In this document: in pieces, positions 1-38,653 of the stretch
Layout: each line of letters opens with the position of its first letter
How positions within the stretch are numbered: position 1 is the stretch's first letter
Source of the DNA: Cenococcum geophilum
Lineage: Eukaryota
DNA length: 64,000 nucleotides
NCBI GenBank assembly: GCA_050273025.1
Contig: CP158635.1
Location: 7,812,001 to 7,876,000, forward strand
Direction: 5' to 3'
Notes under the pieces: generated by a model
Databases searched by the model: none
What the model was told of the DNA's origin: nothing
What the model saw: only the letters and a program-made list of their open reading frames with translations
Made by a program: the position numbers and the translations under genes

Positions 1-64
1 AGTGACTTCTTGAATATGGTAGTAGATTGATTGGTTAGTAGGTAGTGCGATCCGGGCTTATAAC

Positions 65-309
65 TGTAAGCTTTACAGTGCGAAGAATTGAATGAACGAC
101 TTGATTGTGAATGTAGCTCTAAAGCCTCTATATATACACGAAGAAGGTGGAGGTAATAAGACATGATGGGGTAATAGGTAACTGAAATGGAAACAGTGAT
201 CTGCAAGCAATATTGATCTGCAATCAATATATAGGGTGGCGTTGATGCTGTCCTGGAGCCTTCCAAGCGGCGATCTTGTGTCTCGGTACAGTGTCGGTAG
301 TCGGTTACA
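65..309 (-). mobile_element. 5' LTR (245 bp) of a minus-strand Copia element that continues left of the window
   Basis: Reverse complement of LTR 3185-3429 with TG..CA ends. The adjacent 45-64 is the reverse complement of the PBS GTTATAAGCCCGGATCGCAC. Confidence 0.92.
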
Positions 310-785
310 TTTTGTGTTGTAGAAAGTACAGTAGTCTATCTTCAGCTCGAAAAGGCTGAGAATGCGGGTGCGGCTGATGCCTGGCCTGCTTCACCTGCCA
401 AATAAGAGTGGTCTTCCTCTTCGCCGCCCAGGCTGCGGGGTGAACTAGTACAATATGGGTTTAGGTGGGGCATCCCAAGGGATATTTCTTCCTTGGGATG
501 GCCCTAAATCAACTATGGTGAAGACTCTTGCGGAGATCTCTAGTAATTACTATAACTTAGCTAAGAGTTGTATTATAATTAAAGTAAGAACTGGCCACTC
601 TCGGGAAGATCTTCAAGGTCATCAGAGCTGCCGTTACTTTTTAATGGTATAATATTTCGATTATGCTCATCAATCCATCCATGGCGGAGGTTGTCATTCA
701 AAACGACCGTAACGGCCTGTATCCCTTGCACCGATGACAGCCTAGCCTGGAGATGCGTTGACAAAGGTCAAGACGCATTAAGTCA

Positions 786-2276
786 TCAATCACTCGTCAA
801 TGAAACCTTTTCGAGCTGATGTAGCTCTGCCGGCAGATCCTTCAGAACCCCCATCTTTGCAATCCTGAAAGCAAGGCCACAAATCGACCTCTTCTCCTGT
901 TTTCCCGCATCGTTCTCGAACCAGGCCCAGGCACTATCAAGCTGGTCTAGGATGCCGTCCTTTTCAATAATCTCCCGATCGTTGGCATCACCACCCGCCA
1001 GGATCTTCGGCATCAACCATCCTGTCAGCACATATTGGAGCCCTAGTCGCTCTTCGGATGTAATTTCGCATCGATGAAATGCGTCTTCGACTTCCGTGCG
1101 ATCCCGAGAGAACTTCTGTAGCCACATGACGGCGCTGACCATGATCTTGCACCTGTACATGACCTCTGGTTCCTTGGCCAGAGATTTCTTCTCGTGTGCT
1201 TTTCCAGCTGCGATCTCGTCTGCATCGGACTCTGAGAGGATGTGATCAATCAGACATATCATGGTGTCCATGCTGGGGTTCGGTGTGAAGGGCGCATACT
1301 TCTTCATTATCTTCTTCAGCTCTAGATCTTGGTCCTTAGGAAATTTAAGACCCTTGAAAGCATTGCGCACAGCAAGCGGGTAGTCCTTTTTCTGGACTTC
1401 TAGGAACTTTTGAAATATGTCCAAGTCTTCCTTAAATTCTTTCGCCCGATTCGACTCTTTAAGTTCCTGCAATTCGTCAAGGTACGCGCCCAGTCTATGT
1501 TTATTGCCAAATCGGCTACGTGTTCGAGCCATGACGAGATGGTGCAGCTGCTCAAGGAGCAAATCTCCAGACTGGACGAGACCGTTCAAAGCGTCGAGAA
1601 TCCTTTCTTCCTCTACGGACGCCACTCCTTCCATGCTCTTGTACAGGATATCATGGCCTGCTTCTGCCCAGGCGTGTGTCATTGCCGACACGACCTGGAT
1701 CTCGACCATATCGGTCGCTTTCCAGTCGTACTTTTCAGTACCATGATCTGGCTTCATGCGTACTCGGTAATGTTCCGCAGTATAGCCCAAGTTTCGTGGC
1801 CGGTAACCACTCTTTCTCGGTTCTGGAAGTTCCTTCGGATCATGAGGCCTCTCAACGAAGTCAGGCGGTTTGTCTCCGAAGATGGATTTGATAATGGTCT
1901 TGACGGTGTCGCGTTGGATCTGGCTCGGCATATAGAGGATGATACGCACGCCCGCAAGGTCAACGATGTCCTCCATGATTTCCTTTGGATCGGCATAGTG
2001 CACCTTCTCATCTCGTGTTTTCAACTTTTGCAGTAGTCTCTTCCTGTCTTTTGGGCGGAACGAGAAACGTGCCTGCACGCTTTCGCCTTTGAGCTTTTCT
2101 TCACACAACTCTTTCGCTTTTTGGGCACATTTTCTGTAGTGTTCCGGAGAGTATTCGTCCTGGACAAATCTCCAGACAAGGTTAGAGATGGTCGGTTCTT
2201 TGTTAAGAACGGTTTGTGCGCGCGTCAGGGCTCCTCGGTCTGGCGTATCAGTCGATCCCGTAGGGTCTCTAGCCAT
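786..2276 (-). CDS. RelA/SpoT-family (small alarmone synthetase-like) nucleotidyl/pyrophospho-transferase with an uncharacterised C-terminal helical region, about 496 aa
   Basis: Intact intronless ORF. The first ATG is at 2276 (the track starts at a TTG at 2306). Synthetase motifs occur in order: RPKDRKRLLQKL, DIVDLAGVRIILY, GYTAEHYRV, VEIQVVSAMTHAWAEAGHDILYK. No HD hydrolase domain is recognisable. Not RIP-mutated. Confidence 0.9.
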   Translation of the reverse strand: MARDPTGSTDTPDRGALTRAQTVLNKEPTISNLVWRFVQDEYSPEHYRKCAQKAKELCEEKLKGESVQARFSFRPKDRKRLLQKLKTRDEKVHYADPKEIMEDIVDLAGVRIILYMPSQIQRDTVKTIIKSIFGDKPPDFVERPHDPKELPEPRKSGYRPRNLGYTAEHYRVRMKPDHGTEKYDWKATDMVEIQVVSAMTHAWAEAGHDILYKSMEGVASVEEERILDALNGLVQSGDLLLEQLHHLVMARTRSRFGNKHRLGAYLDELQELKESNRAKEFKEDLDIFQKFLEVQKKDYPLAVRNAFKGLKFPKDQDLELKKIMKKYAPFTPNPSMDTMICLIDHILSESDADEIAAGKAHEKKSLAKEPEVMYRCKIMVSAVMWLQKFSRDRTEVEDAFHRCEITSEERLGLQYVLTGWLMPKILAGGDANDREIIEKDGILDQLDSAWAWFENDAGKQEKRSICGLAFRIAKMGVLKDLPAELHQLEKVSLTSD

Positions 2277-4912
2277 TTTGTGCCTCTCGCTGCTACCGGG
2301 TTTCAAGATCTGAGGGAGGTATCAATTCCAAGAGTTGTCGAGTGTGGCCAGAGAAGAGAGTTGATAGAAGGTTGTAGAATCTGGAGGTGTGCCCTCATAG
2401 CCTTGTGAGCCATCGGAATCGTCGCGCGTTTGACGTGGCTTGGCCAACCTAGGCCTTGACAGCAACACACCATCGTTAGAAACTACAGCCACTCTGAATG
2501 CTCATATCTCATATTTCAAAATGTAAAAGCGCGCTCACCTAGCGAGCTGCGATAGAGACAAGAGACCATACCCAGTTATGAAACCCAAGTCATATCGAGC
2601 GCACGTTGAGGCTCTGACCTCACGGACTCCGTGCCTGCTCAACCTTCGCAATGTCTGCTGAGCTGCTTCACTGGATTTCTTCGTGGATTCCAATCATCCA
2701 ATTTCAAGACCAGTGAATCCAGATAGCCTCTGGTCCGAACTTCAGGACACAAGCCTAATCGATGCCCATCGCGAGGACGGCAACGAAGAAGACGAGCCAG
2801 TCAAAGGTCGCTCTCTGCAAGGGCGGATTCTAATTATCGAGGATTTGACTAAGGACCTCGTCGAGCTACTAAGTTCCGCGTTGGACATAGATCCGTTGTT
2901 CTTTGCCTTGCATTTGCATTCACCTCAGAAGAAACGTTCGAACCGCCAAAGTCCGGACCTTGCAACGCTGCCATCAAGGCTACGAAAGCAGGATTATACG
3001 AATTTCCTCCATCACCGGACTATCACGTTCGACTCGGTACCCCCGCCAACTGGGAGGTTATTAGAGGATTCCAACGTTGATCGGAAGTTCATCATACTAC
3101 CTTCGACAAACATTGGATTGGCACAACATTGCACTTTCGTAATCAAAATCCCACGGAAGAATAGCTTTTGGATAGGTAAGCAACTGTAACCGACTACCGA
3201 CACTATGCTGAGACACAAGATCACCGCTTGGAAGGCTCCAAGACAGCGTCAACGCCACCCTATATATTGATTGCAGATCAATATTGCTTGCAGATCACTG
3301 TTCCCATTTCAGTTACCTATTACCCCATTATGTCTTATTACCTCTACCTTCTTCGTGTATATATAGAGACTTTAGAGCTACATTCACAATTAAGCCGTTC
3401 ATTCAATTCTTCGCACTGTAAAGCTTACAGTTATAAGCCCGGATCGCACCACCTGCTGACTAATTAATCTACTACCTTATTTAAGAAGTCACTACTTTTA
3501 CTACCTTTGCAGTGTCTTGAGCTTCTTTACCTATTAAACGAATGGACGATTAACCCCAGTCGACGACCGTACGTACCTGACCAACGAACGAACTGACGAA
3601 TTAAATCAAAAGTTCGAAACGTTAAAATAAGGTTTTCGCCAAGACGCCAATTGGACCCTGCCTGACCTGTTAAAATCCTAAAATGACGATTATAAGCGAA
3701 TTAAAAGTCAACCTTATCCTTAACTAGCTATCTAATTGGATATAGTAGTTCTTTATTATCTAAGACACAGCCAAAACTAACAAGGTACGGTAGTATATTA
3801 ACCCGTCTAAGAAGAAAGATAAGCTTCTAACGCTAGAACTACTGAAACGGCCTATACCAGCGGATGTACGACCTATGGTTACATTAATAACCCAGCTAGA
3901 ATAAGACTAATTCGCTATCTATAACTAGCTCTACGCTAAGTATAAAGACGATCTTTGAATACACTAGAAGTAAGAGCAGGCTATTAATGACATTAGCAAC
4001 TATATTGTGCGAACGACGTTGGTAGCCTACCTTCCCCTTATTAACGGCCTAGACTTGGTCTACGAACGGCTTAAAACACTTAAGAAAGCGCTTGCCCCTA
4101 CTACCTTAGGTTAAAAGTATAACTTCCTAATACAATACACGGCTCTAAAAGCCTATGACAAAAAATAGAGCATTGAGAAATGGTTAAATAACTAGCGGAA
4201 CGTCTATAAGCTTGCTGAGCAATTAGACTTACTAGATATGCAAGGCTTTAGGCCACACTACGACTTCGTTTAAGCAATTCAGCCTATCTCTTCTAGCTTT
4301 ATAGGAGCTCTAGAAGTAGACCTTATTTATAAGGAATGTAAGAATAAAGAAGCCCTATCTATTATTGACCTAATTAAGGAATTTAAGGAGCACTACCGCA
4401 TGTAGTAAGTAGTATCCTTTACTACTACTGCTAATAGCTCTGCCTTTACAACCCTATAAGGCAACTTAAATACTAGTTTAGACGCGAATTCTAACGGTAA
4501 TTTTAATTCCAATTTTAAATGGAATAAGATATGCGTATATAGCCTTAAGTATTAATTCGGCGACTGCTTCTATATTATTAAGCGGAAGCGCCCTTAAGGA
4601 TAGAAGCTAAACCTAGACGTCTAAAAGGAAGTAGAAGAAAAGATCTTATTTATACCTTAGATTAAACGTATCGTTAACCTTATCTTAAAAAGAGAATAGG
4701 AAGTAAAGAAGAGTATAGAATTTATAATTGATTTTAATTATAAAGCCCTACCTTCTAAGACACCTACTAGCTATGCTGCCGCGTTTAGTACTAGTTAATT
4801 TCTATTTAAGCTCCAGAATACCTAAATACTTAACCCTAGTGCAGATACCTACGTCTATAACAACTAAGAAGACTTTACCTTCTCTTACCTAGCTGCAGAA
4901 GACGACTACCTA

Positions 4913-5680
4913 CAGTGGGTCGTCAAAAGTGTCCGTGTTGAGGCCACCCCAAAAATGGCACTCCCTACTAAATTACAATGCGATAACCACGCAATCAATT
5001 CTAAAGCTTTGAAAAATATCTAAAGCTCTTTACAGATATATATTTGAGCAATTGCGACTTTTTTTTAGAGTTTAGCATTTATAATTCTTTGTTAAAAGCC
5101 TTTATGTTATGCCAATGTCTTACCAAAACTCACTATATTTAGTATATATTTTCTATTACCAGATATTAAAAATATTTCTTAAAAATTTAATATCTTGTAT
5201 GGATTTGCTTTTAGTAAAAATCTTTTTATTTAAATTTTTATTTAAAAAATATATAAATTTATTATAAGGTTATAAAGTTAAAAAAGTAGAAAAAAGTACA
5301 ATTTCCCATATAAATTTCAAAATTTAAACTTTATAACCTTATAATAAACTTTCACGCTTTTAAAATTAAAATTAAAATTAAAAGAATTATAATAAATATA
5401 AATCTTTATAAGATATTAATTTTTTTTAAAAATAAATTAATATATAGTAGTGGAAAATATATATTAAGTATTATAGGTTCAGTAAAGAATTAATAGGCTT
5501 TTTAAAAGAATTATAGGTTTTAAATTTTAAAAAAAGTTATAATAGCTAAAGCCTATATATAATATGAATTTTAGATATTTTTTCAAGCTTTAAAATTAAT
5601 TATGTAGTTGTTATATAATAATTTGATAGGGTTGTCATTTTGAAAATGCGCTCGACTCGGACACTTTTGACGACCCACTG
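4913..5680. mobile_element. Tc1/mariner-type MITE (768 bp) inside Copia
   Basis: TIR CAGTGGGTCGTCAAAAGTGTCCG at both ends, TA TSD and an AT-rich interior. The empty site is seen in the second Copia copy at ~36955-36970. Confidence 0.93.
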
Positions 5681-8600
5681 TAATTGCTGGCGGAAATTTT
5701 GAAAAGATTTAAGCCTATAGAATAGTAACTATTATTGTTAATATACCTACTGGGAGCTTAAAAATGAAGCTATCCTATATAGTATTAGTACCTACTATAT
5801 TTACAAATATTGTAGCACTATTAAGGGCTATAGATAATGATATCCATTTTAACTTAGAACGAAACTTGCTATACTGTCTAGCAACTGGCGAAATAGTATG
5901 CTATGCAAAACGACTAGGGGGCTACTGGGCACTAATGTATAGAAAGCCTACCCTAGATTTAATAACTTAATTAACCTTCTTAATAAGAAGATATTAACTA
6001 AGTAGAATGGCCCGTAAACTAGTCGGAGCTATAGCTATAAAATAGTATAAAATACTTGGCTATGTAGGACCTGATGCTATTAAGCAGCTTCCTAAGTACG
6101 TTAATGGCGTAGAGCTTAAAGAGCTAATTAATGAATAAGCACCGCTTAAAATTGAATGTAAAGTCTGCTTATTAGCAAAGCATACGCAGCAGATCTCTTA
6201 AAGACGAGAGTATAAATATCTAGCTACTCGACCATTCGAGCGGCTAGTTTTTGATATTATTACCCTAGGAGAACTAGGGTATAACGGTAATAAATACGTA
6301 ATATACTTCTATTGCATGTATTCTAAATTTAATTTTGTATACACTGCTAAGAATAAAGACAAAGCTACTGTCCTACCTACTATTTATAAGACTTACCAGC
6401 TGATTAAAATACGATTTTACTAAGACGTCATCTTCTTCTGGAGCGATAATAAACGAGCTTTTAGATAGATAGGAGACACCTTATAGATATGGTGCGCAGA
6501 CGAAGGTATTACCTTCAAGTGTCGAGCCCCGTATACTGAAGAATAAAATGGTGGAGTAGAATGATCTAGACGAACCCTTATAGAATGATTAAGGGCTATG
6601 CAGCTAGAAGCTTTATTACCCCCGTCTTTAGGACCAGAAGCTTTTTTTGCTACTAGATATGCACTTAATCGAACCCTAAATAAGCAACTAGGGTGGAGAA
6701 CTCCCTATGAGGTTGCCTACGGTAAGCTGCTATTTCTTACCTATATGCATATATATGGCTGTAAGACCTATATACTGGACAAAAGGGTTAAAAGGGGAGA
6801 TAAACTAGCTCTTTATGCATTAATTAGACACCTAGTCGGCTACAATTTAACTAATATCTATTGAATTTGGATTCCGAGTCTCCGCAAGGTTATTTAAATT
6901 AGAGACGTTATATTTAACGAACCCTCATTTTATAACCCTAAGGGTTAAGATATTAACTACCTGCTAAGGGAAGCATTAGAAGACATCCTTTAGATAATTA
7001 GTCTACCAGAACCTCTCCTTAAGGATAAATTTAAGGATAAATCTATCTTATATAGACCTACCTCAAATGTAGATTAAATAACTACACCTAAATTAAATGA
7101 TGTAGTAGAGCCTTATATAAAGGATACTAAGCAGTTACTAACTCCTAGTAGAACGGTATCTTTAAATCTATTAGAAACAAACACCTTACTAGGAGGACTT
7201 TAAGACGATATCTTAGAGGTAATTAAAATAGGTCCTACCTAATTAAACAGTTTATTAGAACCGTTAAATATAGCTCTATAAGCTAACGAAGTCTTAGCTA
7301 AACCTTCTGCCGACCTTATCTTACTAAAAGGATTAAAACGAATTCAACGTTAAGCGTATATAGCAGTACTAGCCAATCTATCTACCCTATTTAATTACTA
7401 TGCTGGATTTGCTATAGGACTAGTAAAGGATATTGACTAAACTAGATCCTTATCTCTATATCGGGACAACCTTCCTCCTAAACTAAAGAATCTTAAAGAT
7501 CTAAGAAAGCACCCTTTAACTACTAGCTTTTAAAAGGCTATGGAAAAAGAATACAATGACCTAAAACGCTAAGGGATATTCAAGACTATACTAAAAGTAG
7601 AAGCAGGTAACGAGCAGATCTTTTTATTAAAATGGGTCTTTAAATATAAGCTTAATAGCGACGGTTACCTTTAAAAGCTTAAAGCTAGACTATACGTCTG
7701 CGGAGACCTATAGATTATAAAGGAAGAGACCTATGCAGCAACCCTAGCTACTTAAATATTCCGTGCTCTTATGGCTATAGCAGCCGCATTTAACCTGGAA
7801 ATTTAATAGTATAACGCGGTAAACGCATTTATAAACGCTAAGCTTAGTAAACTAATCTACTGCTATTACCTAGAAGGATTTAATTAAAACGGACATGTCC
7901 TAAAGCTACTTATAGCGCTATATGGATTAAAAATCTTACCACTACTTTGGTATAAAGAGCTTACTAATATACTAGCTAAATTCGGATTAGAACTAGTATT
8001 AGGCATTAACTACCTATTTACTAATAGACGACTTATTGTCTTTTTCTATATAGATGATATTGCCGTCCTATTTGCCAAGAAGGACCTTTTAAGACTTGAA
8101 GAATTTGAAGCAAAATTGCTGCACTGATACAAGATCTATGTATTAGGAGACCTATAGTGGTTTCTAGAAATTTAAATTAAACGAGATCGACTAAGTCGAA
8201 AGCTCTGGCTCTGCTAAGATTCCTACATTAAAAGGATAGCTAATCGATTTAATATTTAACTAGGAAGATTTCCTAAATCTTTACTACCTACTGAACTGAT
8301 TCCGTCTAACCAGTAGACGAACCCTTAAAGAATACTAGCCTATTAGTAACGGGTTGGTTCTCTTATATACCTAGCCGTATTTAGAAGACCTGATATTACT
8401 AAGACGCATTCTAAGCTAGCCGAATTCCTTACTAATCTAAATTAAGAACACCTTAATATAGCAAACTAATTACCTCAGAAGCTTAGACCAAGAAATCGAT
8501 TGCGGATATAGGAATATCCGCACCGTCCGCTAAGCTAATTTAGGACGGTAATCGTTTTCTTGGTCTAAGAGACTTTGGCGAGATTTATAGGAAAACCTAA

Positions 8601-8929
8601 ATACCGTTTATATAAGAAGACCTTATAAACTTTAACGAAATTAATCTACCCTCCCATAATACCTGTCGACATAAAAATTATACCAAATTATAGAGAAAAG
8701 CCTCCTCTATAAGTTATGAGATCTTCAGCTTCTTATACACGCGCGATGTTAAGAGGAATTCGTTGCCGTAGAGGCCCCAATTCTACCTCCGCATCGCCGA
8801 GCCGCTTAGTAAACACCAACGCTGAACGCTTACGCCCACGCCCACGCCCACGCCCACACCGCCAGCCCTCTGCGTAGAGCTGTGGAGCTTTGCGAGAGCT
8901 CTGTGAAACAAAGCTCAGGGGGAAACCTG

Positions 8930-9575
8930 CACGGAGCTCTGCACGGAGCTCTACCAAAGCTCTGCAAAAGCTCTGCACGAAGCTCCGCACGAAGCTCCGC
9001 TCGAAGCTCTGCTCGAAGTTCCGCTCGAAGCTCTGCTCGAAGCTCTGCTCGAAACTTTGCTCGAAGCTCTACTCGAGGCTCTACTCGAAACTCTGCTCGA
9101 AACTCTGCTCGAAGCTCTGCTCGAAGCTCTACTCGAAGCCCTGTCGATTCCCATTACCAAATACTGACTGAGTGGCGTTGTCGAAAGTGGCAATTACAAA
9201 TCGTAGTCGTCAGCTCTACCGTCAGCATCGTCATTGGCGTTTCGCCACCTACCTCATGTATATATATTATCTTTTCTTCGCCTATATAGAGCTCTAAAGC
9301 TCTAACACGCAGCACTAATATACTAGCAAGGTTCTACAATCGCCCGTACAAACGCCCATACAATCAATCGATCAATTGCCCATACAATCGTCTCTACAAA
9401 CATCTCTGCAATTGATCGCCCTTACGAACGTCTGCACGTCTGCACAGCTACACGTCTGCACGCCTGCACGTGGCTCTGCACGAAGCTCTGCACGAAGCTC
9501 TGCACGAAGCTTTGCACGAAGCTCTACTAAGGCTCTGCACGAAGCTCTACTAAGGCTCTGCACAAGGCTCTGCCC
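8930..9575 (+). repeat. Two 12-bp tandem arrays (GAAGCTCTGCTC / GAAGCTCTGCAC) at ~8930-9140 and ~9470-9575
   Basis: Direct inspection. They explain the SSAR/KLCS low-complexity ORFs. Confidence 0.9.
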
Positions 9576-10004
9576 AAAACTTACCCTTAAGTAGTAGCAG
9601 AGGCCTCCGGGCCACGGGAGGATATTTTTAAGGAAGGACCCAACTATAGCACCTTCTAGGTGTTGCAATGGCTTTAAGTAGTAGATATCTACACATCTGT
9701 ATAATTTTAGCTATATTAGTAGGCTATTTAATAAGATATAATATATGCTTACGCTTTTAACAACGCGTTTTTTAACTTTAATAAAATTAATATTAGGACT
9801 AAGCAATAGCCGTATTATAAAATTTATACTATTTAGAAGCCCTAAGTCTTAAAAATAATATATAAATATTTGGTAATAATAACGCGTTATGTGAATAAAT
9901 GAATTAGATATCTGTAATATCCGTTTAGCGGATTTTTGCTTACGCTTTTAACAAAACTTGCTAAAGCCTCTCAGACGTGATTTTGCAATTCGGAAGACGG
10001 CATA

Positions 10005-11204
10005 GAAGGCCCCACCACCTCGTGCACGGTACCACCTCGTGCACGGTTTTCCCCCACCAAAATACACCAAAATACACCTTGTTTAAAATTTTATAACTTA
10101 ATAATTATAAAATTTATTACTATGAAATTTGAAATATGGTTTATTAAATAGTAAATTTATCATTTTATAAAATAAAAACTATGAAATTATAATATATATA
10201 TTTTATAAATTAAGTTTAAAAAAGATCATTTTAATATTATATATAACTTTTAATAATAATTATATGCTATCTATTATTAAGTTAAATTATTTTATTTTAT
10301 ATATACGTTATATAAATAAAGGGTTTTATAATACTTTAGGCTTTATAATTATATAATTATATTATTTAAATTTACATTTAATAAAATATATATTTGTTTA
10401 CATTTAAATTATAAATAATACATTTATATTATAAATTATATTTTTAATATAATATAATATAATATAATGTAATAATAAAGTATAATTTAATTTACTTTTA
10501 TGTTATGTATAACTCTTTTTATATTTCTTTATATTTTTGTATAAAATTATATAAAATTATATAATTTTATTAGCAGCAGGTGCCCCCTAGTAACTCTACA
10601 GTAGTAGAGTAATAGTTTGTGATACTAGCGCGTCCGTAGGCTTGTTACGGCAGCAGTGGTTCCTAAGGAGGTCAAACAGCAAGGTAGTAGAGCACTATAG
10701 GCGACTTATAGGCGCTAAGCAGGCGAGTCCCAAAAGGCGGGGAGATGGATCACGGGGTTTTCTCATTTTTCTTAAATAGAGTTTTCTCCCCACATGTAAA
10801 TAAGGAGTAGTCCGCGTGGGCCCAATAGGGATCCGAATCGGACGTTAAGCAATGAATTATTATTATTATTATTATTATATAATTTTATTATAAATAATAT
10901 AGATAATAATAATATTTTTTCAAAAATTAACTTAACATAATTTAGTATAATCATTTAAAATTATAAATTAGTCAAAAATTATTCTATTTATTAACTTATC
11001 GACTTATTAATATAAAGTTAAATATTTTAATATTTTAATAAATATTGAGTATTTTTGTAAAATAAAAATTTATAATAAAAATTTACATATTTGGATATGC
11101 TATATTTAAATTTCAAGTTATTTTATTAAAAGGGTGATTTTTAAATATAAAAAGACTGGAAAACGTGCATGAGGTGGTACCGTGCACGAGGTGGTGGGGC
11201 CTTC
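10005..11204. mobile_element. TA-TSD MITE nested in the 9-bp-TSD element
   Basis: ~41-bp TIR GAAGGCCCCACCACCTCGTGCACGGTACCACCTCGTGCACG with an internal direct repeat. TA on both sides and a very AT-rich interior. Confidence 0.9.
10572..10876 (+). mobile_element. Severely 5'-truncated LINE copy (3' UTR plus (ATT)n tail)
   Basis: Near-identical to 32191-32483, the 3' end of the LINE at 28940-32483. Flanked by a ~13-16 bp TSD ending ATATAATTTTATT. Confidence 0.88.
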
Positions 11205-13148
11205 TAGGTTATTCCGACGCTAGCTAAAAATCGCGTCTAAGCTCGCTGAGGTAAGCAAACTAAGCTATTTCCTACTGCCTTAGAACAAAATTAACAGCTA
11301 TTAAATACTCTGGCGAAGCCTTTAAAGCATACGTCTATTATAGAAACCTAGAAGGAGAAGATGTTACCTTTTACAGAGTATCTAATATAGCATTTGCGGA
11401 CGATAAGGAGACTAGACGGAGCTCTTAGGGGTACCTATTTATACTATTTGGAGGACTAATTAATTGGAAAGCTACCTTATAACAATCGGTTACTCGTTTA
11501 ACTACTAAAGTGGAGCTTCTCTCCCTATCTACTGCTGCCGTTAAAATTATCTGGTGGTAATGATTCTTTAAGGCAATAGGCTTTAACTTAGAACGCGATT
11601 TTACCGTGCTCTACAACAATATGCAGACTGTACAACTCCTAAGACAGGATATACCAAAGCTTGACACTAAGCTTCGACATATCAACGTTTACTAGTACTG
11701 GCTGAGGCAGGAAGTCTAAGACAAAAAGATTGACGTCTAATGGGTCCTTATAGATAAGATGCCTGCTAACGGCCTTACCAAGATCCTACCTCGTCAAAAG
11801 CACGAAGCTTGGATAAAGTAATTGAATTTGGTGGATATTTGACATTAGATTAATTGATTCCATTCGTAATGTCCGCGATATCCGCAATATCCGCGATATT
11901 CGCAATAATGCCATTTTAATTACCCTACCCTTTGCTACTCTTAAATTGTATCTAAATTTCCTATTTTGGTATAGCTTCTGACCTTATTTTATGTTCTATA
12001 GCTTTAACTACATCGTTAAATCTGGGGGGGTGTGTAACCGACTACCGACACTGTGCTGAGACACAAGATCACCGCTTGGAAGGCTCCAAGACAGCGTCAA
12101 CGCCACCCTATATATTGATTGCAGATCAATATTGCTTGCAGATCACTGTTCCCATTTCAGTTACCTATTACCCCGTCATGTCTTATTACCTCCACCTTCT
12201 TCGTGTATATATAGAGACTTTAGAGCTACATTCACAATCAAGTCGTTCATTCAATTCTTCGCACTGCAAAGCTTACAGCAACGATTCTTGTCTTTCGATT
12301 TGGTCCACTGAGACTTATGTCTGGATAGCCTTGATACTTGTCGACCCACCCATCAGGGACGAATACCTCCCCAATGGAGACCAAGACACCAGCACCAACT
12401 ACGTCGAATTCTATCCAAACCATTTCTGGGAGGCTATGAGGATTTTCTCGACCCGCCGTCCATCTTCTCTGACACGGATTCTTCATCCAGTCCCAAGCGT
12501 CAGGGCCTCCTTCAAGATCTCCTATATTACTTGGCCCAAGACGCGTCACCATGCCTGAATCCCCAAAATCCCACGCCCACATCCCTCTCTTACTACCCCC
12601 TCAAAATAGTCGCCGCAGAATGGGTCAAATATTGCAGAAAATCCGCGCTATCGTTCGCCTACTACGATCACGGATGATGGCGGAGTCTACACAGGACTGT
12701 ATTATCGCGCTCATTGAGGATTTCGAGCACATCGCTGTGAATATGGAAGACGCCGGTTGCCGACTTGAGAGCATGTTACCAATCGTCACATCTCTAGTTC
12801 AGATCGTCGATACCAGACGGTCATTCGCAGAGACGGCCAATATCAGCCGCTTAACGATTTTGGCCCCGATTTTTGTCCCCTTGAGTTTCGTAGGATAATG
12901 CGCCGGGACATAAGTACTTTTGGGTGTATTTCGTTATTGCTGTGTCGGTTACTGCGGTTGTTTATCTTATTGCTCGTCCGCCGAGCAAGGAGCTTAAGAT
13001 TTTGTTTGAGAAGTTCAAACTGGGGAGGAAACGGCTGGATACTGTTGAGTAAGTGCGATCTGGGACTTTGTTGTACAAGGAATCGCAGGTCTGATGGGGC
13101 TTCAGCGAATGGTGAAGGGGCTATAGTACCTGTTGGTAGGGGGGGGTA

Positions 13149-19961: not shown

Positions 19962-21118
19962 GAGCTTACAACGTACAGCAGCCTCTTGCCAGCAACGTGA
20001 AGACCCTACATTACTCCCTCTACAACATCCTGATTGCTCGCATCGATCGTGGGAGGCCGCATATTGTGAGGATCATGAACCGTGATTCCGACGAAGCCAA
20101 GATAGACGCGAGGGCAGCAACAAGCCTGTACCCAACATCAAAGCTGAAGGAAGGTAGGTCATGACTTTCCTCATATCCGAATTGAGTAATCCCTGTGACA
20201 GTGAGTGAGTAGCATCTAACTATTAAAGAGGCTACAGTAGACTCTTTACCTGAACTGCTAAGAAGCTGAGTGAATGAAAGCTACTTCCCTTTACAGCAGA
20301 ACAATTCTGGAGTTAAGCTGACACATACTTCACTTTAACAGTTGATGTGAGTGGAGAGGATACAAAAATAGTTGCCAATATCTTCAGAAGACGGCAAGCG
20401 GATGAAAAGTCATTGGCCTACCATTGGGTTGCTCATTTCTTGCAACAAGAAGGGGTCCAGGATCATGATATGAAAGATGCGTCGGCCAGGCTCATGAAAA
20501 GGCTTGAGAGCGAATTGAAGGAGAAGTTGGTCAGCGGCGCTATTAAGGGAGGCTCATTAGATGGCCAGGTGAGGGACTATTTAAAAAGTCCTGAAGGTAG
20601 AAGCTTTCGTGAGTAACATGAACCCAATATTGAATGGTCTGGGCTGCGGTGGCCGGATTAGACTAACTATAACAGTTAACATATGGTTGCAGCCAAGCAC
20701 CCCAGTGAAGGGCGAAGTACCTTCCCGCTTAACGCCGGTTACGCCGCTAAATGTCGCTGTTAACGAAGAGATACATCCAAACTACCAAGATAACTTTGTT
20801 GAGAGGCGCGATAAACAGGTCCCAGAGGTTGAAGAACCTAATCCAGAAGCTAAGCCAGTCTCTCAGGTGCTACCGCGTGACGAAGTCCAGGTGTTGCCAG
20901 CCCAGGCAGAAGGCGTCAAAGGCATCCAAGGCTCCAACCAGCCTAGGGTCAGGCGTGTCAGTACCAGTGCCAGACACCCCGAAGGCAGTGATGACATAGT
21001 TGATGCGCGTAGACGGCACACGATATCGAGCCTTTCGGACTGGCCCGAATATTGGACCTCTGAGGAATTTAATGACTATCTGAAGAAGGCGAATAGTGTA
21101 TGGAAAGAGTCTGGGTGA
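19962..21118 (+). CDS. Hypothetical multi-exon protein (exons ~19962-20153, 20342-20608, 20693-21118; 5' exons unresolved)
   Basis: Non-RIPed DNA. Open frames are joined by GTAGGT..GCTGAC..CAG and GTGAGT..CTAAC..CAG introns. Includes track ORFs 20347-20616 and 20609-21118. No recognisable domain, and exact splice sites are uncertain. Confidence 0.5.
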
Positions 21119-22139
21119 TTTAACGTCGTTGGGGAGGCGGTTCAGAACAGTTGGCAGGGGGGTGGCGAGGTTAGTGTGGAAAGTAGGGGACGGTGGATGG
21201 GAATATAGGTGACGTTCGTGAGGGAAGACGGAGTATATAGTTTGAGGTCGCTAGATTCAGCATCTTCGTAATGAGAATCGAATGGTATTATTTTTTACTA
21301 GTGGAGTGGCACCGGAGAGAGGAGTATAACGTAATAGGACTGGAAGCCGGCAGGACGAGCTCACCTATGTGTTAGGAGAGATGATCATTGCTATCAACAG
21401 ACAGAGGGAGACGGACGTTCAGAGCGGGTAGGAATAGTGTTGAGCCTGGGGCTATGGATTAAGTTGAGCGGGATGGCGAAGTGTATGCGACCCGGAGCAG
21501 GTGCAGGCTGAAGTAGAAAGCTGAAGTTTGACAACCTACAGGGCGGAGAAGCAACGTTTAACCCCATCGTTCTAGCGAGCTATGATTGGTTATTCATCTT
21601 TTGCCGCTCTTGGTAATGCCTGCCGCATCCTTCGGTAGGAAAGATGATTGGTTATTAACTTTTATCGCTCTTGGCAACTTTTGTCGCATCCTTTGGCAGG
21701 AAAGACGATTGGTTAACCCAATCCAGACTTACTGGAAACCCGACGCTACGGGACAGGATGAACCGATATGAGACCCCACCTAAGCATGAGATAATATAGC
21801 GGGAAGTGCGTCGCGCCCAATCCGAGTTGGGCTTGGAGCCTTGTCTTTTACCTTTCACAAGATGCAGCTAGGGCGCAGACATAGACAGTCTGCAGCGCAT
21901 CGAAATTGTGCCCTCCTTCCAGCAGGTGTTAGATGATCAATGCCAGAATTCTGATACGGAGCGCCGCCATCGCGCTAACTTCCTCACCATTCAGAAAGCA
22001 TAATGCGGTCCAGGAAGAGTGGCAGGTTGCCTGCCTTGTCATCGCTCCCAGCGGGTTTGCTGTCATGGAGTGATGCACGCCCCATGTGACGAAGTGGTAC
22101 ACCATTTACAAAAAGGGTGTGGCCGGTTATCTCAGTTGA

Positions 22140-22351
22140 CTCAGACCCTCGGAGAGAAAATCCACCTCACCTCTTGCAAACTCCTGAGCCAATCAGCGGC
22201 TGGCACCGCCACATCTCTGTAACCCCTGTGACTCCTGCAAACTCCTAAGCCAATTAGCGACCGGCGCCGTACGCCGCAGGCGTTAGTGCTTGCGCTAGCT
22301 TTAGCAGCCAATTATAGGGCACTGAGGTGGATTCCTCTCCGAGGGTCTGAG
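22140..22351. repeat. 212-bp segment bounded by ~30-bp inverted repeats (MITE-like)
   Basis: CTCAGACCCTCGGAGAGAAAATCCACCTCA ... TGAGGTGGATTCCTCTCCGAGGGTCTGAG. No TSD is visible. Confidence 0.6.
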
Positions 22352-22529
22352 GGAAAATGGGCGCGATTTGTAAAGGTAGACCAGCCTGCCTAGTAGACGA
22401 CAGTTGTATCGCCTTTAACGCGGTATATCGCCCCCTAATACACCACTACTTAACTCGCCGATACCTCCATTTAAAAGCCCTTCTCTCGCTCTACAGAATC
22501 CATCCGCAATAGAGCCTGATTGTCCCCCT

Positions 22530-33108: not shown

Positions 33109-36100
33109 TGTAAGCTTTGCAGTGCGAAGAATTGAATGAACGACTTGATTGTGAATGTAGCTCTAGAGGCTCTATATATACACGAAGAAGGTAGAAGTGA
33201 TGGGGTAATAGATAGCTGAAATGGGAACGGTAATCTGCCACCAATATTGATCTGCAACCACTATATTGGGTGGCGTTAACGCCATCTTGGAGCCTTCCAA
33301 GCGGTAATCTTATGTCTCAACGCAGTGTCGGTAGTCGGTTACACACCCCCCCAGATTTAACGGTGTAGTTAAAGCTATAGAACATAAAATGAGGGCAGAA
33401 GCTATACCAAAATAGGAAATTTAGATACAATTTAAGAGTAGCAAACGGATAGGGTAAGAATGGCATATTGCGAATATTACAAATATTGCGGATATTGCGA
33501 ATGGAATCAAATATTGCGGATATTACGAATGGAATCAATTGATCTGATGTCGAATATCCACCAAATTCAATTGCTTTATCCATGCCTCGTGCTTTTGACG
33601 GGGTAAGATCTTGGTAAGGCCGTCGGCAGGCATCTTGTCTATAGGGACCCATTGGACGTCGATCTTTTTGTCTTAGACTTCCTGTCTTAGCCAGTGCTGG
33701 TAGACGTCGATATGTCGAAGCTTAGTGTCAAGCTTTAGTGTATCCTGTCTTAGGAGTCGTACGGTCTGCATATTATCGCAGAGCACGGTAAATTCGCGTT
33801 CTAAATTAAAGCCAATTGCCTCAAAGAATCGTTGCCACCAGATAATTTCAACGGCAGCAGTAAATAGGGAGAGAAGCTCTACTTTAATAGTCGAGCGAGT
33901 AATAGATCGCTGTAGGGTTGCTTTCTAATCGATCAGTCCTCCAAATAGGATAAATAGATATCCTTAAGAGCTCCGTCTAGTTTCTATATGGTCCGCAAAT
34001 ACTGCGTCGGATACTCCGTAAAAGGTAACGTCTTCTCTTTTAGGGTTTCTAAAGTAGACGTAAGCTCCAAATACTTCGCCAGAGTATTCAATAGCTGTAG
34101 ATTTCGTTCTAAGACAGTAAGCAATAGCTTGGTTTACTGCGTCAAGGTATTGTTAATTTAGATTAGTAAGGAATTCGGCCAGCTTAGAATGCGTCTTAGC
34201 AATATTAGGTCTTCTAAATACGGCAAGGTGTGCAAGTGACCCTACTCGTTGCTGGTAGGCTAGGGTTCTTTAAGGGTTCGTCTGCTAGTCAGACGGAATC
34301 AGTTCTTCGGCAGAAAGTGGTGACTTAGGAAATCTTTCTGGTGGTTGAATATTGAATCAATTAGCTATCTTTTCGATATAGGAGTCTTGGCAAAGCCAGA
34401 GCTTCCTACTTGCTCGATCTCGACTGATTCGAATACCTAGGAACCACTGTAGGTCTCCTAGTACACGGATTTCGTATCGGTGCAGCAATTTTGCTTCAAA
34501 TTCTTCAAGTCTTAAAAGGTCCTTCTTGGCAAATAGGACGGCTATATCGTCTACATAGAAGAAGACAATAAGTCGTCTATTGGTAAATAGGCAGTTAGTG
34601 CCTGGTACTGGTTCTAATCCGAATTTAGCCAGTATATTAGTAAGCTCTTTATACCAAAGTAGTGGTGAGATTTTCAATCTATATAGCGCCATGAGTAGCT
34701 TTAGGATATATCCGTTTTGATCAAAACCTTCTGGGCAGTAGCAGTAGATTGGTTTACTAAGCTTGGCATTTGTAAATACGTTTACAGCGTCATACTGTCA
34801 AATTTCCAGGTCGAATGCGGCTGCTATAGCCATAAGAGCACGGAATATTTAAGCAGCTAGGGTTGCTGCATAGGTCTCTTCCTCTGTAATCTGCAGGTCT
34901 CCGCGGACGCATAATCTAGCTTTAAGCTTCTATAGGTAGCCGTCACTATCAAGCTTGTATTTAAAGACCCATTTTAGTAGAAGGATCTACTCGTTACCTG
35001 CTTCTGCTTTCGGTACAGTCTTAAATGTCCCTCGGCGTTTTAGGTCGTTATATTCTTTTTCCATAGCCTTTTAAAAGCCAGTAGTCAAAGGATACTTTCT
35101 CAGATCTTTAAGATTCTTTAGTTCAGAAGGAAGGTTGTCCCAATGTAGAGATAAGGATCTAGTTCGGTCGATGTCCTTTACTAGTCCTATAGCAAATCCA
35201 GTGTAGTAACCAAATAGGGTAGATAGATTGGTTAGTGCTACTATATGCGCTTAACGTCGAATTCGTTTTAATCCTTCTGGTAGGATAAAGTCGGTAGAAG
35301 GTTTAGCCGAGACTTCGTTAGCTTGTAGAGCTATATTAATTGCTCTATTGGATGGTTCTAGAGAGCTTAGCTAGGTTAGAATTGTTTTAATTATATCTAG
35401 GATGTCGTCTTAAAGTCCTTGTAGTGAGGTGTTCGATTCTAGTAAATCTAGAGATACCGTTCTGCTAGGTGTTAGTAACTGCTCAGTATCCTTCGTACGA
35501 AGCTTTACTAAATTATTCGATTTAGATATAGTCGTTTAATCTACACCTAAGGTAGATCTTTAAGGGTCCAGATTGACTGTGTATAGGATTAATTCGTCCT
35601 TAGATTTGTCCTTATATAGAGGTTCTGGTAGACTGATCGTCTAGAGGGTATCTTCTAATACTTCCCTTAGCAGGTAGTCGATGTCTTGACCCTTGGGGTT
35701 ATAGAACGAGGTCTCGTTAAATATGACGTCTTTAGTTTAAATGACCTTGCGGAGACTCGGAATCCAGATTTAATAGATATTGGTTAAATTATAGCCGACT
35801 AGGTGTCCAATTAATGCACGAGGAGCTAGTTTATCTCCCCTTTTAATTCGTTTGTCTAGTGTATAGGTTTTGCAGCCGTATACATGCATATAGGTAAGTA
35901 ATGGCGGCTTGCCGTAGGCGATCTCGTACGGAGTTTTCCATCCTAGTTGCTCATTTGGGGTTCGATTAAGTGCGTATCCTACGGCAAGGAACGCCTCTAG
36001 TCCTAAAGACGGGGGTAAGGATGCTTCTAGCTGCATAGCCCTTAATCGATCCATAAGGGTTCGTCCAGATCGTTCAGCTCCGCCATTTTGTTCTTCTGTA

Positions 36101-38653
36101 TACGGGGCTCAGCATTTAAAAGTAATGCCTTTGTCTACGCACTATGTATGCAAGGTGTCTCCTGTTTGTCCAAAAGCTCATTCGTCGTCGCTCCAGAAGA
36201 AGATCACGTCTTGGTGGAATCGTATTTTAATTAAACGGTAGGTCTTGCGGATAGTAGGTAGAACGGTAGCTTTGTCCTTATTCTTGGCGGTAAATATAAA
36301 ATTAAATTTAGAATACGTGCAATAGAAGTGCATCACGTATCTATCGCCGTTGTACCCTAGTTCTCCTAGGGTAATAATATTGAATGCTACCCGCTCAAAT
36401 GGTTGAGTGGCTGGAAATTCGTGTTCTCGTCTTCGAGAGATCTGCTGTGTGTGCTTTGATATTAAGCAGACTTCGCATTCGATTTTAAGCGGTACTCGTT
36501 TGTCGATTAGCTCTTTGAGCTCTGCGCCATTAACGTGCTTAGGAAGTTACTCAATAGCGTTAGGTCCTGCATGGCCAAGTATTTTATGCCATTTTGTAGC
36601 TGTAGCTCCAACTGGTTTGCGGGCCATTCTGCTTAGTTAATGTCTTCTTAATAAGAAGGTCGATTGAGTTGTCGAATCTAGGGTATTTATAGGCTCTCGG
36701 TGCATCAGTGCCTAGTGGCCCCCTAGTCGTTTCGCATAGCATACTGTTTCGCTAGTAGCTAGACGGTATAGCAAGTTTCGTCCTAAGTCAAAATGGATAT
36801 CGTTATCTGTAGCCCTTAATAGTGCTACGATATTTATAAACATGGTAGGTACCAATGCTACGTGGGATAGCTTCATTTTTGAGCTCCCAGTAGGTGTATC
36901 GACAGTAATCGTTACTATTCCGTAAGCCTATATTTTTTCACAATTTCCACCAGTAATTAGGTAGTCGTCTTCTGTAGCTGGGTAGAAGAAGGTAAAGTCT
37001 TCTTAGTTATTGCAGACGTGGGTATCTGCACCAGGGTCGAGTATCCAGGTATTCTAGAGTTTAAATAGAGTTTGACCAGTACTAAACACGGCAGCATGGC
37101 TAGTCGGGGTTTTGGAAGGTAGGGTTTTAGAATCAAAATCAATTGTAGATTCTATATTCTTCTTTACTTCCTATTCTCTTTTTAAGATAAGGTTAATAAT
37201 GCGTTTAATCCAAGGCGTAGATGAGATTACTTCTTCTACTTTCTTTTAGATGTCTGGGTTTGGTTTCCATCCTTAAGGGCGCTTCTGCTCAACGATGTAG
37301 TAGCAGCTACTAAATCGATGTTTGAAGCCGCATATGCATTCCTTATTCCATTTTAAATCTGAATTAGAATTGTTATTAGAATCTAAATTGGAATTGCCTA
37401 GGGTTGCAAAAGCAGAGTTATTGGCAGGGGTAGCCGAGGATGCTGCTTACTGCATGCGGTAGTACTCCTTAAATTCCTCAATTAGATCAATAATAGATAG
37501 GGCCTCTTTATCCTTCCGTTCTTTTCTAATAAGGTCTACTTCTAGTGCTCCTACAAAACTAGAAGAGATAGATTTGATAGCTTGAACAAAGTCATAGTAT
37601 AGCCTAAATCCTTATATATCTGGTAGCTTTAATTGCTCCGCAAGCTTATAGATATTCCGCCAGTTGTTTAACTATTTGTCGATACTCTGCTTTTTATTAT
37701 AGACTTTCAAAGCCGTGTACTGATTTAGGACGTCTCGTTTTCGACCTAAGGTGGTAGGGGCTAGTGCAGTCTTAAGTGCTTGAAGCCGTTCGTGTACCGT
37801 ATTAAGGTCGTCGATGAGTGGAAGGTAGGCTACCGATGTAGTGCGAACGATATAGTTACTGATATCGTTTATAGCCCGTTTTTGCTTCTCGTATATGCGA
37901 AGATCGTCTTTATATTCAGCATAGAGCTGGTTGTAGGCGGTGAGCTGACTTGGGTCTAGCTTTGCTATCAATGTAGCCGTGGGTAGTATGTCCCTTAGTA
38001 TAGGACGACTTGGTTATACTAGCTTTGGACGCTCGCCTTTTTTAGATGGGTCAATGTGCTCCCATACCTCGTTAGTTTTGGCAGTATCTTAGATAATAAA
38101 GAACCACTATGTCCAATCAGAAGGCTGGTTAAGGATCAGGTTAACTTTCGATTCGCTCATAGTCGTCATTTTTAGGATTTAACAGGTCAGGCAGGGTCCA
38201 ATTGGCGTCTTGGCAAAAACCTTATTTTAACGTTTCGAACTTTTGATTTAATTCGTCAGTTCGTTCGTCGGTCGGGTACGTACGTCAACTAGGGTCAATC
38301 GTCCGTTCGTTTAATAGGTAAAGAAGCTCAAGACACTATAAAGGTAGTAGAAGTAGTGACTTCTTGAATGAGGTAGTAGATTAATTGGTCAGCAGGTGGT
38401 GCGATCCGGGCTCATAACTGTAAGCTTTGTAGTGCGAAGAATTGAATAAACGACTTGATTGTGAATGTAGCTCTAGAGGCTCTATATATACACGAAGAAG
38501 GTAGAAGTAATGGGGTAATAGATAGCTGAAATGGGAACGGTAATCTGCCACCAATATTGATCTGCAACCACTATATTGGGTGGCGTTAACGCCATCTCGG
38601 AGCCTTCCAAGCGGTGATCTTGTGTCTCAACGCAGTGTCGGTAGTCGGTTACA
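33109..38653 (-). mobile_element. Full-length Ty1/Copia element (same family as 3185-12277) inserted in Gypsy RNase H
   Basis: 235-bp LTRs at 33109-33343 and 38419-38653. TSD TCTAT and PBS GTTATGAGCCC. Polyprotein relic 38169-33535 has WILDPGADTH, WHKILGH, IVFFYVDDI and SDAVFAD. Confidence 0.97.

Follow-up and report, generated by a model that had tools for sequence, protein, structure and literature searches.

An intact small-alarmone-synthetase-like gene facing the remnants of a CorA-like partner gene in a transposon-rich region of Cenococcum geophilum

The window analyzed here is a 64,000-nucleotide stretch of the Cenococcum geophilum genome (GenBank assembly GCA_050273025.1, contig CP158635.1, positions 7,812,001 to 7,876,000 of the forward strand); all positions given below are counted from its first letter. 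Near its left end the window contains an intact RelA_SpoT gene of the small alarmone synthetase (SAS) type, labeled R in this work. R lies head to head with the remnants of a gene for a CorA-like protein, labeled A, which is interrupted by a Ty1/Copia retrotransposon. A third gene, encoding a C2H2 zinc-finger protein that neighbors R in many of its relatives, is labeled B. The coordinates of all features are collected in Table 1.

The open reading frame (ORF) of R does not owe its length to chance, since the next two stop-to-stop frames of the 64 kb in order of length have only 210 amino acids (antisense to R) and 200 amino acids. It carries no signature of repeat-induced point mutation (RIP), with a TpA/ApT ratio of 0.51 and a (CpA+TpG)/(ApC+GpT) ratio of 1.29. 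An earlier note made from the sequence of the window had described an intronless 496-residue ORF, and this description is supported by the relatives of R, which align with it from end to end, and by a 2,339-nt contig assembled from RNA libraries, which runs ungapped over the gene. In a search with the PF04607 (RelA_SpoT) profile from Pfam, which the same note had suggested as a check, R scored 38.3 bits, above the gathering cutoff of 27, matching over residues 74–214. No HD hydrolase, TGS, ACT or other Pfam family reached its cutoff in R, so that R appears to be a synthetase only, in agreement with the note, which had seen no hydrolase domain. A scan against NCBIfam gave no match to R, nor did a single-sequence search of the PDB, for which a family profile was needed.

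An alignment of 52 full-length relatives contained 11 invariant columns, corresponding to R74, K76, D106, R111, Y165, E192, Q194, W203, H208, K213 and L292 of R, and a further 24 columns that were at least 90% conserved. R retains all 35, which cover the catalytic motif positions. The SAS catalytic motifs, which we take to be R-x-K-x3-S-x3-K, D-x2-G-x-R, G-Y-x3-H, E-x-Q and H-x3-Y-K, were placed from the alignments on R74, K76, S80 and K84; D106, G109 and R111; G164, Y165 and H169; E192 and Q194; and H208, Y212 and K213, to which W203 may be added. In the 52 sequences, each of these positions is either invariant or conserved to 90% or more. A profile built from the same alignment matched RelP (6fgk, E 3.1e-10) and RelQ (5ded, E 2.5e-5), and both bacterial enzymes aligned residue for residue with the fungal R-x-K-x3-S-x3-K, D-x-x-G-x-R, G-Y-x3-H, E-I-Q and H-x3-Y-K blocks. 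The synthetase motif blocks, four of which the earlier note had picked out, are all present, with every position kept. One deviation runs through the whole family: the fungal proteins have EIQVVS in place of the EIQIRT of bacterial SAS.

A model of R was predicted with AlphaFold2 from the alignment (pLDDT 90, pTM 0.82). It comprises an α/β domain (residues 32–215) and a long helix (221–252), together spanning residues ≈32–252, followed by an all-helical domain (259–474). When compared with known structures by VIA, the model was most similar to RelQ (5dec; Z 15.8, root-mean-square deviation 3.1, 183 of 188 residues aligned) and RelP (6ewz; Z 15.6), followed by an exported Streptomyces SAS (Z 12.1) and Rel (Z 11.4). 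The toxin-type enzymes CapRel, Tas1 and FaRel2 were more distant, at Z 9.9, 9.8 and 7.0, respectively. Foldseek agreed with VIA on the fold, with a probability of 1.00. Because of this difference in Z (15.6–15.8 versus 7.0–9.9), the catalytic core of R is placed closest to the SAS that make (p)ppGpp, rather than to the toxin types; the likeness of a predicted fold to RelQ and RelP would not settle the substrate of R. By its Pfam match, its motifs, its predicted fold and its synthetase-only composition, R has the features of an SAS-type synthetase domain, to which is added a helical C-terminal domain not known from SAS.

This C-terminal half is part of the family, since most relatives match R over the full ≈500 residues. 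Folded alone, the domain gave a model with a pLDDT of 91.1 and a pTM of 0.89. Searches for its fold gave a best Z of 5.3 in a wide VIA search, a best E of 0.6 with Foldseek on the PDB, and nothing usable from Atlas. A resemblance of its first ≈100 residues to an AAA+ lid bundle was weak (Z 5.3), below the level considered meaningful, and was rejected. No transmembrane segment and no signal peptide were found in a scan of the R sequence; lacking a hydrophobic segment that could serve as either, R is cytosolic and not a secreted toxin. The architecture of fungal NOD-like receptors (NLRs) is likewise absent from R: RelA_SpoT is the only family in its 496 residues, with no NACHT or NB-ARC domain and no repeats.

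Upstream of R, and divergent from it, lies what is left of A. The candidate ATG of the A remnant is at 2578 and the ATG of R at 2276, the same head-to-head layout as that seen in relatives. The two halves of A were traced by tblastn on either side of the Copia element, the N-terminal half over 2569–3180 and the C-terminal half over 12322–13067, both on the plus strand. The element had inserted 9 nt into an intron of A and is flanked by a perfect 5-bp target-site duplication (TSD), GCAAC, at 3180–3184 and 12278–12282. Joining the two exons restores the W-I-A-L-I-L sequence of the family, and an intron occurs at the same codon position in the A genes of four of the related loci described below (L036, L040, L041 and L044), while it is absent in two others (L037 and L038).

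A is a pseudogene in the window. An in-frame TGA at 2659–2661 in exon 1 replaces a codon that encodes arginine in the relatives, and the frame changes three times in exon 2, near 12387–12417, near 12632 and at 12892/12894. Approximately 31 residues are gone near 12632, and at 12892/12894 another 8, including the SMN pore motif. The two largest open A remnants had no Pfam match at E ≤ 0.01, yet they were 36–55% identical to the A proteins of relatives. Neither exon remnant is RIP-mutated (indices 0.57/1.19 and 0.65/1.11), so A decayed by ordinary mutation. Altogether, A has five disabling lesions in ≈1,560 nt, whereas R has none in 1,491 nt. If both genes had been evolving neutrally at equal rates, the Poisson probability of such a contrast would be roughly 0.008, suggesting that R has been kept under selection since A died. 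This in turn speaks against a constitutively toxic R to which A would be the antidote. The survival of R is compatible with a role that does not depend on A, or with a second copy of A elsewhere.

Table 1. Features of the window, with positions counted from its first letter.
Feature	Position	Strand	Remarks
5' long terminal repeat (LTR) of another element of the same Copia family	65..309	minus	body leaves the window leftward; bounds the unique island 3' of R
RNA-library contig, putative unspliced mRNA	395..2733	not shown	2,339 nt; 0 gaps and 0 mismatches vs. genome
R, RelA_SpoT (SAS-like) coding sequence	786..2276	minus	intact from ATG to stop; 496 aa + stop
R, family-specific all-helical C-terminal domain	789..1514	minus	residues 255–496; predicted model, conserved in relatives
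R, catalytic RelA_SpoT nucleotidyltransferase core	1635..2057	minus	residues 74–214; Pfam PF04607
R–A intergenic region, putative shared promoter	2277..2577		between the divergent start codons
A, exon 1 remnant	2578..3175	plus	tblastn with relatives' A proteins, 36–45% identity, E to 1e-42
A, first 9 nt of intron	3176..3184	plus	GTAAGC 5' splice site; 3180–3184 is the left TSD copy
Ty1/Copia LTR retrotransposon in the intron of A	3185..12277	plus	9,093 bp; RIP-mutated
LTRs of the 9,093-bp Copia	3185..3429 (5'); 12033..12277 (3')		239/246 identical; TG...CA ends
Right TSD copy and rest of the A intron	12278..12328	plus	TSD 12278–12282; AG at 12327–12328
A, exon 2 remnant	12329..13052	plus	four reading-frame segments; single open frame in relatives
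Ty1/Copia fragment, RVT_2	7888..8124		Pfam
Ty1/Copia fragment, RVT_2	34360..34797		Pfam
Ty1/Copia fragment, retroviral integrase SH3	35773..36108		Pfam

The pairing of R with A is not peculiar to C. geophilum. Sixteen eukaryote-like metagenome loci (L030–L045) carrying full-length R relatives at 31–42% identity were compared by all-against-all matching of their ORFs. After collapsing duplicates (L035/L036, L039/L040 and L041/L042 are identical, and L033/L043 are 98% alike), 12 distinct loci remained. A was found in 10 of the 16 loci, equivalent to seven of the 12 distinct ones: in six it is the immediate upstream neighbor of R, in divergent orientation, and in L032 it lies 5.4 kb downstream. 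L031 and L045 contain no A, but no upstream sequence either. In these loci A encodes a CorA-like protein of 527–595 residues, the last ≈170 of which match PF01544 with 46.7–51.8 bits (cutoff 27). A profile of 37 A proteins aligned with T. maritima CorA from TM1 through the pore motif to TM2 (E 8e-6). The pore motif reads FSMN in place of the canonical YGMN, with S457 and M458 invariant in all 37 sequences. Intact A relatives thus carry the PF01544 domain of the CorA superfamily, with SMN instead of G-M-N between the two C-terminal transmembrane helices.

When an intact A protein (P0250) was used as the query, 138 relatives were recovered, and the resulting table was compared by eye with that for R. 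In four of the five annotated genomes that have serial locus tags and list both genes, the R and A tags are consecutive: Alternaria alternata (AA0117_g2403/g2404), Coleophoma cylindrospora (BP6252_03446/03445), Kalmusia (N0V90_001620/001619) and Paraconiothyrium brasiliense (SLS60_009977/009978). The one exception is Paraphaeosphaeria (PSPO01). Among 19 named assemblies common to both tables, the R and A entries agree in their longest-contig value in 16. The pairwise identities of R and A also co-vary (r = 0.863 for 21 pairs; none of 2,000 permutations gave a value as high). Between lineages, R proteins are 34–45% and A proteins 50–63% identical.

The second conserved neighbor, B, was present within a few kb of R in 11 of the 16 loci (L030, L032, L035, L037–L040 and L042–L045), often convergent and just downstream, as at L038:4516-5691. 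It was not found in the window and may have been split off by the left Copia insertion. The conserved neighbors of R are therefore the CorA-like and C2H2 genes, as recovered without a search aimed at small conserved antitoxin-like ORFs. Beside the bacterial relatives of R, a profile search of L001–L029 revealed no A-like gene, and a Pfam scan of 66 neighboring ORFs in L001–L022 revealed no CorA-like gene. One CNNM/CBS and one Na/H exchanger gene were seen among the neighbors in the bacterial loci, probably by coincidence.

The earlier note had placed R in an accessory region. The surroundings are indeed a transposable-element-rich, RIP-mutated fungal region, but rather than standing alone there, the protein belongs to a large family: among 1.84 billion cluster representatives, 2,087 matched R at E ≤ 1e-3, 719 at ≤ 1e-10 and 126 at ≤ 1e-30. 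A word-indexed search gave 277 matches, the best of which was 49% identical. The fungal family is one of Pezizomycotina, and the named relatives are nearly all Dothideomycetes (Lojkania, Melanomma, Kalmusia, Periconia, Alternaria, Trematosphaeria, Glonium and others), joined by the Leotiomycete Coleophoma. R is 31–51% identical to fungal proteins over its full length and 25–33% identical to named bacterial relatives, and with so low a bacterial identity any transfer from bacteria would have to be ancient.

A quick maximum-likelihood tree of the catalytic domain (130 rows, SH-aLRT supports, midpoint root) was calculated after nine near-duplicates had been dropped (L036, L040, L042, L043, L072, L076, L078, L079 and L086). 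In this tree, 64 full-length fungal-type rows fall on one side of a branch with a support of 95. A subclade of 33 rows with a support of 100 contains R from the window, its closest relative P0002, all seven distinct A-bearing loci, and the Alternaria, Coleophoma, Kalmusia, Lojkania, Melanomma and Trematosphaeria proteins, whereas L033 and L045, which have no A, fall outside it. The nearest outgroups of the fungal family are Deinococcus frigens and the contigs L046–L049, one of which (L049) has a bacterial-like coding density of 0.85. On a profile of the fungal catalytic domain, the D. frigens protein scored 196 bits, compared with 50–97 bits for other named bacteria. That the fungal family arose from bacteria long ago, a bacterial origin having been named as a possibility for R in the earlier note, is thus plausible on the strength of these bacterial or bacterial-like outgroups, but the low identity makes it an ancient event, and the tree, being unrooted, leaves the direction of transfer unset.

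The wider family contains several other arrangements. The D. frigens protein (strain DSM 12807, L001:2914-4224) is a 437-residue RelA_SpoT protein that matches the profile up to query residue 332. It adjoins a Trypsin_2 + Endonuclease_1 protein and is a candidate for transfer between fungus and bacterium in either direction. The contexts of the bacterial relatives are mixed, and some adjoin restriction or Dnd genes. In bacteria of the candidate phyla radiation (Paceibacterota, Saccharibacteria and Staskawiczbacteria), proteins of 1,006–1,035 residues have an N-terminal RelA_SpoT domain followed by ≈800 unannotated residues and adjoin a gene for a LexA–methylase fusion or an SRA-domain protein (L003:2878-5952, L010:2797-5901 and L020:2935-5952). 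Two domain fusions were noted, InPase (PF18823) with RelA_SpoT in P0243 and RelA_SpoT with a C-terminal EH/EF-hand in P0233. Seven longer relatives, six of ≈900–1,000 residues and P0128 with 1,160, showed RelA_SpoT only and no nucleotide-binding oligomerization domain (NOD), which is a weak negative. The closest partial matches to R, at 53–58% identity over residues 153–263, were found at L050:3316-4385 and L051:1301-1985. They are spread over three frames, as expected of intron-bearing or decayed genes, and L050 has a weak A-like match upstream.

R is apparently transcribed. At least half of the words sampled from positions 600–2500 were present in 20 of the 24 listed public runs (14 studies). 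Eleven of these runs are on record as RNA (metatranscriptomes), each containing at least 91% of the sampled words, and four DNA runs with R words may be the source of the assembly itself. The contig listed in Table 1 came from runs X5 and X6, whose contigs and depths are the same, so that they may be one data set. Ending within unique DNA and not at the repeat edges (309 and 3185), the contig is consistent with an unspliced mRNA of ≈2.3 kb, and it confirms the lack of an intron in R. A second contig from the RNA libraries covers 2774–3181, the 5' part of the dead A, and continues into the Copia LTR; it may be a truncated chimeric transcript. Three runs with the same species label as one of those that contain R (X22–X24) had next to no R words, for which absence from the isolate and lack of expression are equally fitting explanations, with proof of neither. 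No contig over R was obtained from X22, nor from the raw-read RNA run X21, in which the presence of the organism itself was not shown.

The remainder of the window consists largely of decayed transposons. In 4-kb blocks, TpA/ApT ranged from 1.25 to 1.97 and (CpA+TpG)/(ApC+GpT) from 0.33 to 0.85 in all but two blocks, 1–4000 and 20001–24000. Outside R, the six-frame ORFs with 75 residues or more number 74, and three of them matched Pfam at E ≤ 1e-4, all as Ty1/Copia, in a scan that could overlook multi-exon genes with short exons. The description of the region as a transposon graveyard is apt, and the claim that R is the sole intact gene of a known family in the 64 kb is consistent with this result. 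The block at 20001–24000, also without a RIP signature (GC 0.48, TpA/ApT 1.09, substrate index 1.05), contains ORFs of up to 177 residues (20585–21118) with no Pfam match and may hold another, unrecognized gene.

The element in the intron of A is identified as Ty1/Copia by its direct TG...CA LTRs, its 5-bp TSD and an internal RVT_2 remnant (33.9 bits). All seven differences between its LTRs are transitions, and its inner part has RIP indices of 1.40 and 0.72. Nested inside it, between 4911 and 5682, are inverted repeats (5118–5283/5323–5488, 74%; 4963–5072/5522–5631, 70%; 4911–4960/5633–5682, 80%) that resemble a foldback or a miniature inverted-repeat transposable element-like insertion. R itself is flanked by an inverted repeat of 312 nt with 94% identity (1–312/3182–3493). 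We considered whether R might lie in a DNA transposon with private terminal inverted repeats, but rejected this, since the arms consist of LTRs and adjacent internal sequence of a dispersed Copia family. This family has at least five copies in the window, its LTR sequence recurring at 12033–12278, 33109–33343 and 38152–38654, and only the inner 313–3181 is unique. A minus-strand copy of the same family extends between LTR copies over 33109–38654 and includes RVT_2 and integrase SH3 remnants.

We put it somewhat above even that R is a SAS-type nucleotide pyrophosphokinase that was ancestrally coupled to a membrane effector, and that it persists in the window as an orphaned half-module, probably under selection. 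According to this model, R would be a cytosolic enzyme with a RelQ/RelP-like core and a family-specific helical C-terminal domain. Its product would resemble (p)ppGpp or (p)ppApp and would be formed by moving the β,γ-pyrophosphate of ATP onto the 3'-OH of a purine nucleotide. The nucleotide signal made by R would act on the CorA-like protein as its membrane effector or regulated channel, as suggested by the linkage of the genes and by analogy. In the lineage of the window, the partner was killed by the insertion of Copia into its intron, with a stop codon, three frameshifts and the loss of the pore motif following later. R, meanwhile, has remained intact, has escaped RIP and is apparently transcribed, an orphaned half-module that is probably still being selected.

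Several observations weigh against this model. The change from EIQIRT to EIQVVS may affect activity or substrate. The acceptor might also be tRNA or an adenine nucleotide. Three of the 12 distinct loci (L030, L034 and L033/L043) are without A despite 2.3–10 kb of upstream sequence, so that the pairing of R and A is not obligatory. The N-terminal ≈370 residues of A match no family in Pfam, and no nucleotide-binding domain was identified there. The linkage and co-variation of the two genes could partly reflect the shared descent of related species rather than a functional coupling. Were the two genes an obligate pair, it would be awkward that R survives in the window when A does not, unless another copy of A exists elsewhere in the genome. 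Assembled contigs reveal neither strand nor RNA nature, and the two runs behind the contig over R may be the same data. Finally, the literature searched, which left out most subscription journals, contains no enzymatic or genetic data for any member of the fungal family, no characterized stand-alone fungal SAS and no CorA pairing.

By analogy, the same model could be taken further, although we consider this extension unlikely. Filamentous ascomycetes might have an alarmone-like messenger of their own, in which the product of the SAS-like enzyme would gate the SMN-type CorA-like channel encoded head to head with it, in the service of stress arrest or of a regulated death of the cell. Such a system would parallel, in eukaryotes, the membrane effectors of bacteria that are activated by nucleotides, and the window would represent a natural "signal generator without effector" state. 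Signaling of the (p)ppGpp type is not known from fungi.

The earlier note had favored a toxin or defense effector. R might be a toxin-type SAS that executes cell death or defense by pyrophosphorylating the CCA end of tRNA or by draining ATP through (p)ppApp; the C-terminal helical domain would then be an in-cis inhibitor and sensor, as in CapRel, and the CorA-like neighbor a co-effector or an immunity factor. This reading is partly supported. RelA_SpoT is among the N-terminal effector domains of fungal NLRs, making up <1% of annotations (PMC4986451). Podospora nwd5, with a RelA_SpoT–NACHT–WD architecture, was induced 3.6-fold in incompatibility (PMC3689799). CapRel, Tas1 and FaRel2 were all recovered as structural relatives of R, with Z of 7–10. 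The C-terminal domain packs confidently on the catalytic domain in the model (pTM 0.82), the family is multi-copy and patchy, and some of its bacterial members adjoin restriction or Dnd genes. On the other hand, the predicted fold of R is clearly nearer to RelQ and RelP, and the seven longer relatives have no NOD domain. If A were the immunity factor, its decay beside an intact and transcribed R would be hard to tolerate. Judged by the modeled fold, the toxin reading is the less likely one, and we regard it as doubtful.

Alternatively, the two genes might constitute a module for magnesium or metal homeostasis, in which A would be an ordinary ion transporter and the synthetase a regulator of, or regulated by, the cation supply, with no conflict involved. 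The membership of A in the CorA family (47–52 bits in Pfam; E 8e-6 for the alignment with T. maritima CorA) would agree with such a role, as would the long-term conservation of the pair over Dothideomycetes and one Leotiomycete and the presence of a C2H2 regulator gene near R in 11 of the 16 loci. However, the GMN signature is needed for Mg2+ selectivity in canonical CorA, and the A family has SMN, not GMN, throughout. Moreover, some genomes have several copies of the pair and some loci have none, which would not be expected of a core housekeeping function, and A was lost in the window without the loss of R. A homeostasis module is therefore quite unlikely.

It is improbable that R is a functionless relic, a gene not yet broken in an eroding region and transcribed as noise. 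Such a fate might be expected where the partner is dead and two Copia insertions bracket the locus within RIP-mutated DNA, and the runs without R words (X22–X24) could mean that other isolates lack the gene, or equally that they do not express it. Against this, R has kept all 35 invariant or nearly invariant positions of its family, the count of lesions is zero in R and five in A, with the rough probability given above, and contigs over R occur in RNA libraries from many studies. A recent bacterial transfer or a contamination of the assembly, to which the bacterial and plastid character of the domain and the 196-bit score of the D. frigens protein might point, is extremely improbable and is excluded by the flanks: R has on either side a copy of a fungal-type Copia family found repeatedly in the window, and it shares its intron-bearing CorA-like neighbor with annotated fungal genomes. 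R is also at best 25–33% identical to bacterial proteins versus 31–51% over the full length to fungal ones, and it belongs to a fungal family that forms one group in the tree with a support of 95.

The earlier note was thus partly right: it was correct on the family, the fungal context and the possible bacterial ancestry, and incomplete in that it missed the conserved partner. What is new is a large fungal family that has kept every catalytic residue, with one well-supported subclade in which R is inherited together with a non-canonical CorA-like gene. A vague notion of an odd bacterial domain in fungi is replaced by a concrete two-gene hypothesis, for which intact pairs exist in tractable fungi such as Alternaria, Coleophoma and Paraconiothyrium. 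The window itself amounts to a natural experiment, in which a retrotransposon has knocked out the partner and left the synthetase intact, and this counts against a constitutive toxicity that would need the partner as an antidote. If an alarmone-like product does act on the channel, the logic of nucleotide messenger and membrane effector known from bacterial immunity would reach into eukaryotes.

Among known systems, RelQ (SAS1) and RelP (SAS2) are most like R, sharing the catalytic fold (Z 15.8 and 15.6 over 183–194 aligned residues), the motif set and the synthetase-only composition. They differ in that identity is only 16–21%, and in having EIQIRT rather than EIQVVS. R has an inserted loop at ≈134–163 and a helical C-terminal domain of 240 residues, both lacking in bacterial SAS, and it is eukaryotic, monocistronic and paired with a CorA-like gene. 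CapRel, a fused toxin–antitoxin tRNA pyrophosphokinase of the toxic SAS (toxSAS) class, also has a RelA_SpoT-type domain followed by a C-terminal domain (Z 9.9, profile E 0.06), but it is more remote than RelQ and RelP; the C-terminal domain of R is larger, all-helical and without a fold match, and R has no phage context. Tas1 shares the RelA_SpoT pyrophosphokinase fold (Z 9.8). It is a type VI-secreted (p)ppApp synthetase with an immunity protein, whereas R has no export signal and no such neighbor. Fungal NLRs of the Podospora nwd5 type have the same Pfam domain in Pezizomycotina (PMC4986451 and PMC3689799), while R has neither NACHT/NB-ARC nor repeats; the tree was built without RelA_SpoT sequences of the NLR type. 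RelA_SpoT has been counted in 17 Sordariales NLRs (PMC12258605), and RelA/SpoT toxin domains have been described from bacterial polymorphic toxins and type III effectors (PMC3482391). For the pair, the closest parallel is found in type III CRISPR, where SAM-AMP, made by Cas10, activates an effector of the CorA family (PMC10600005 and PMC12255297). In both cases a synthase of a nucleotide signal is linked to a CorA-family membrane protein. The synthase family and the signal are different, the CRISPR system is prokaryotic and operonic, and the coupling in fungi is suggested by linkage; we claim homology only at the level of the CorA superfamily. As far as we have found, the pair of SAS-like and CorA-like genes represents an undescribed variant on this theme of a nucleotide-signal synthase and its membrane effector.

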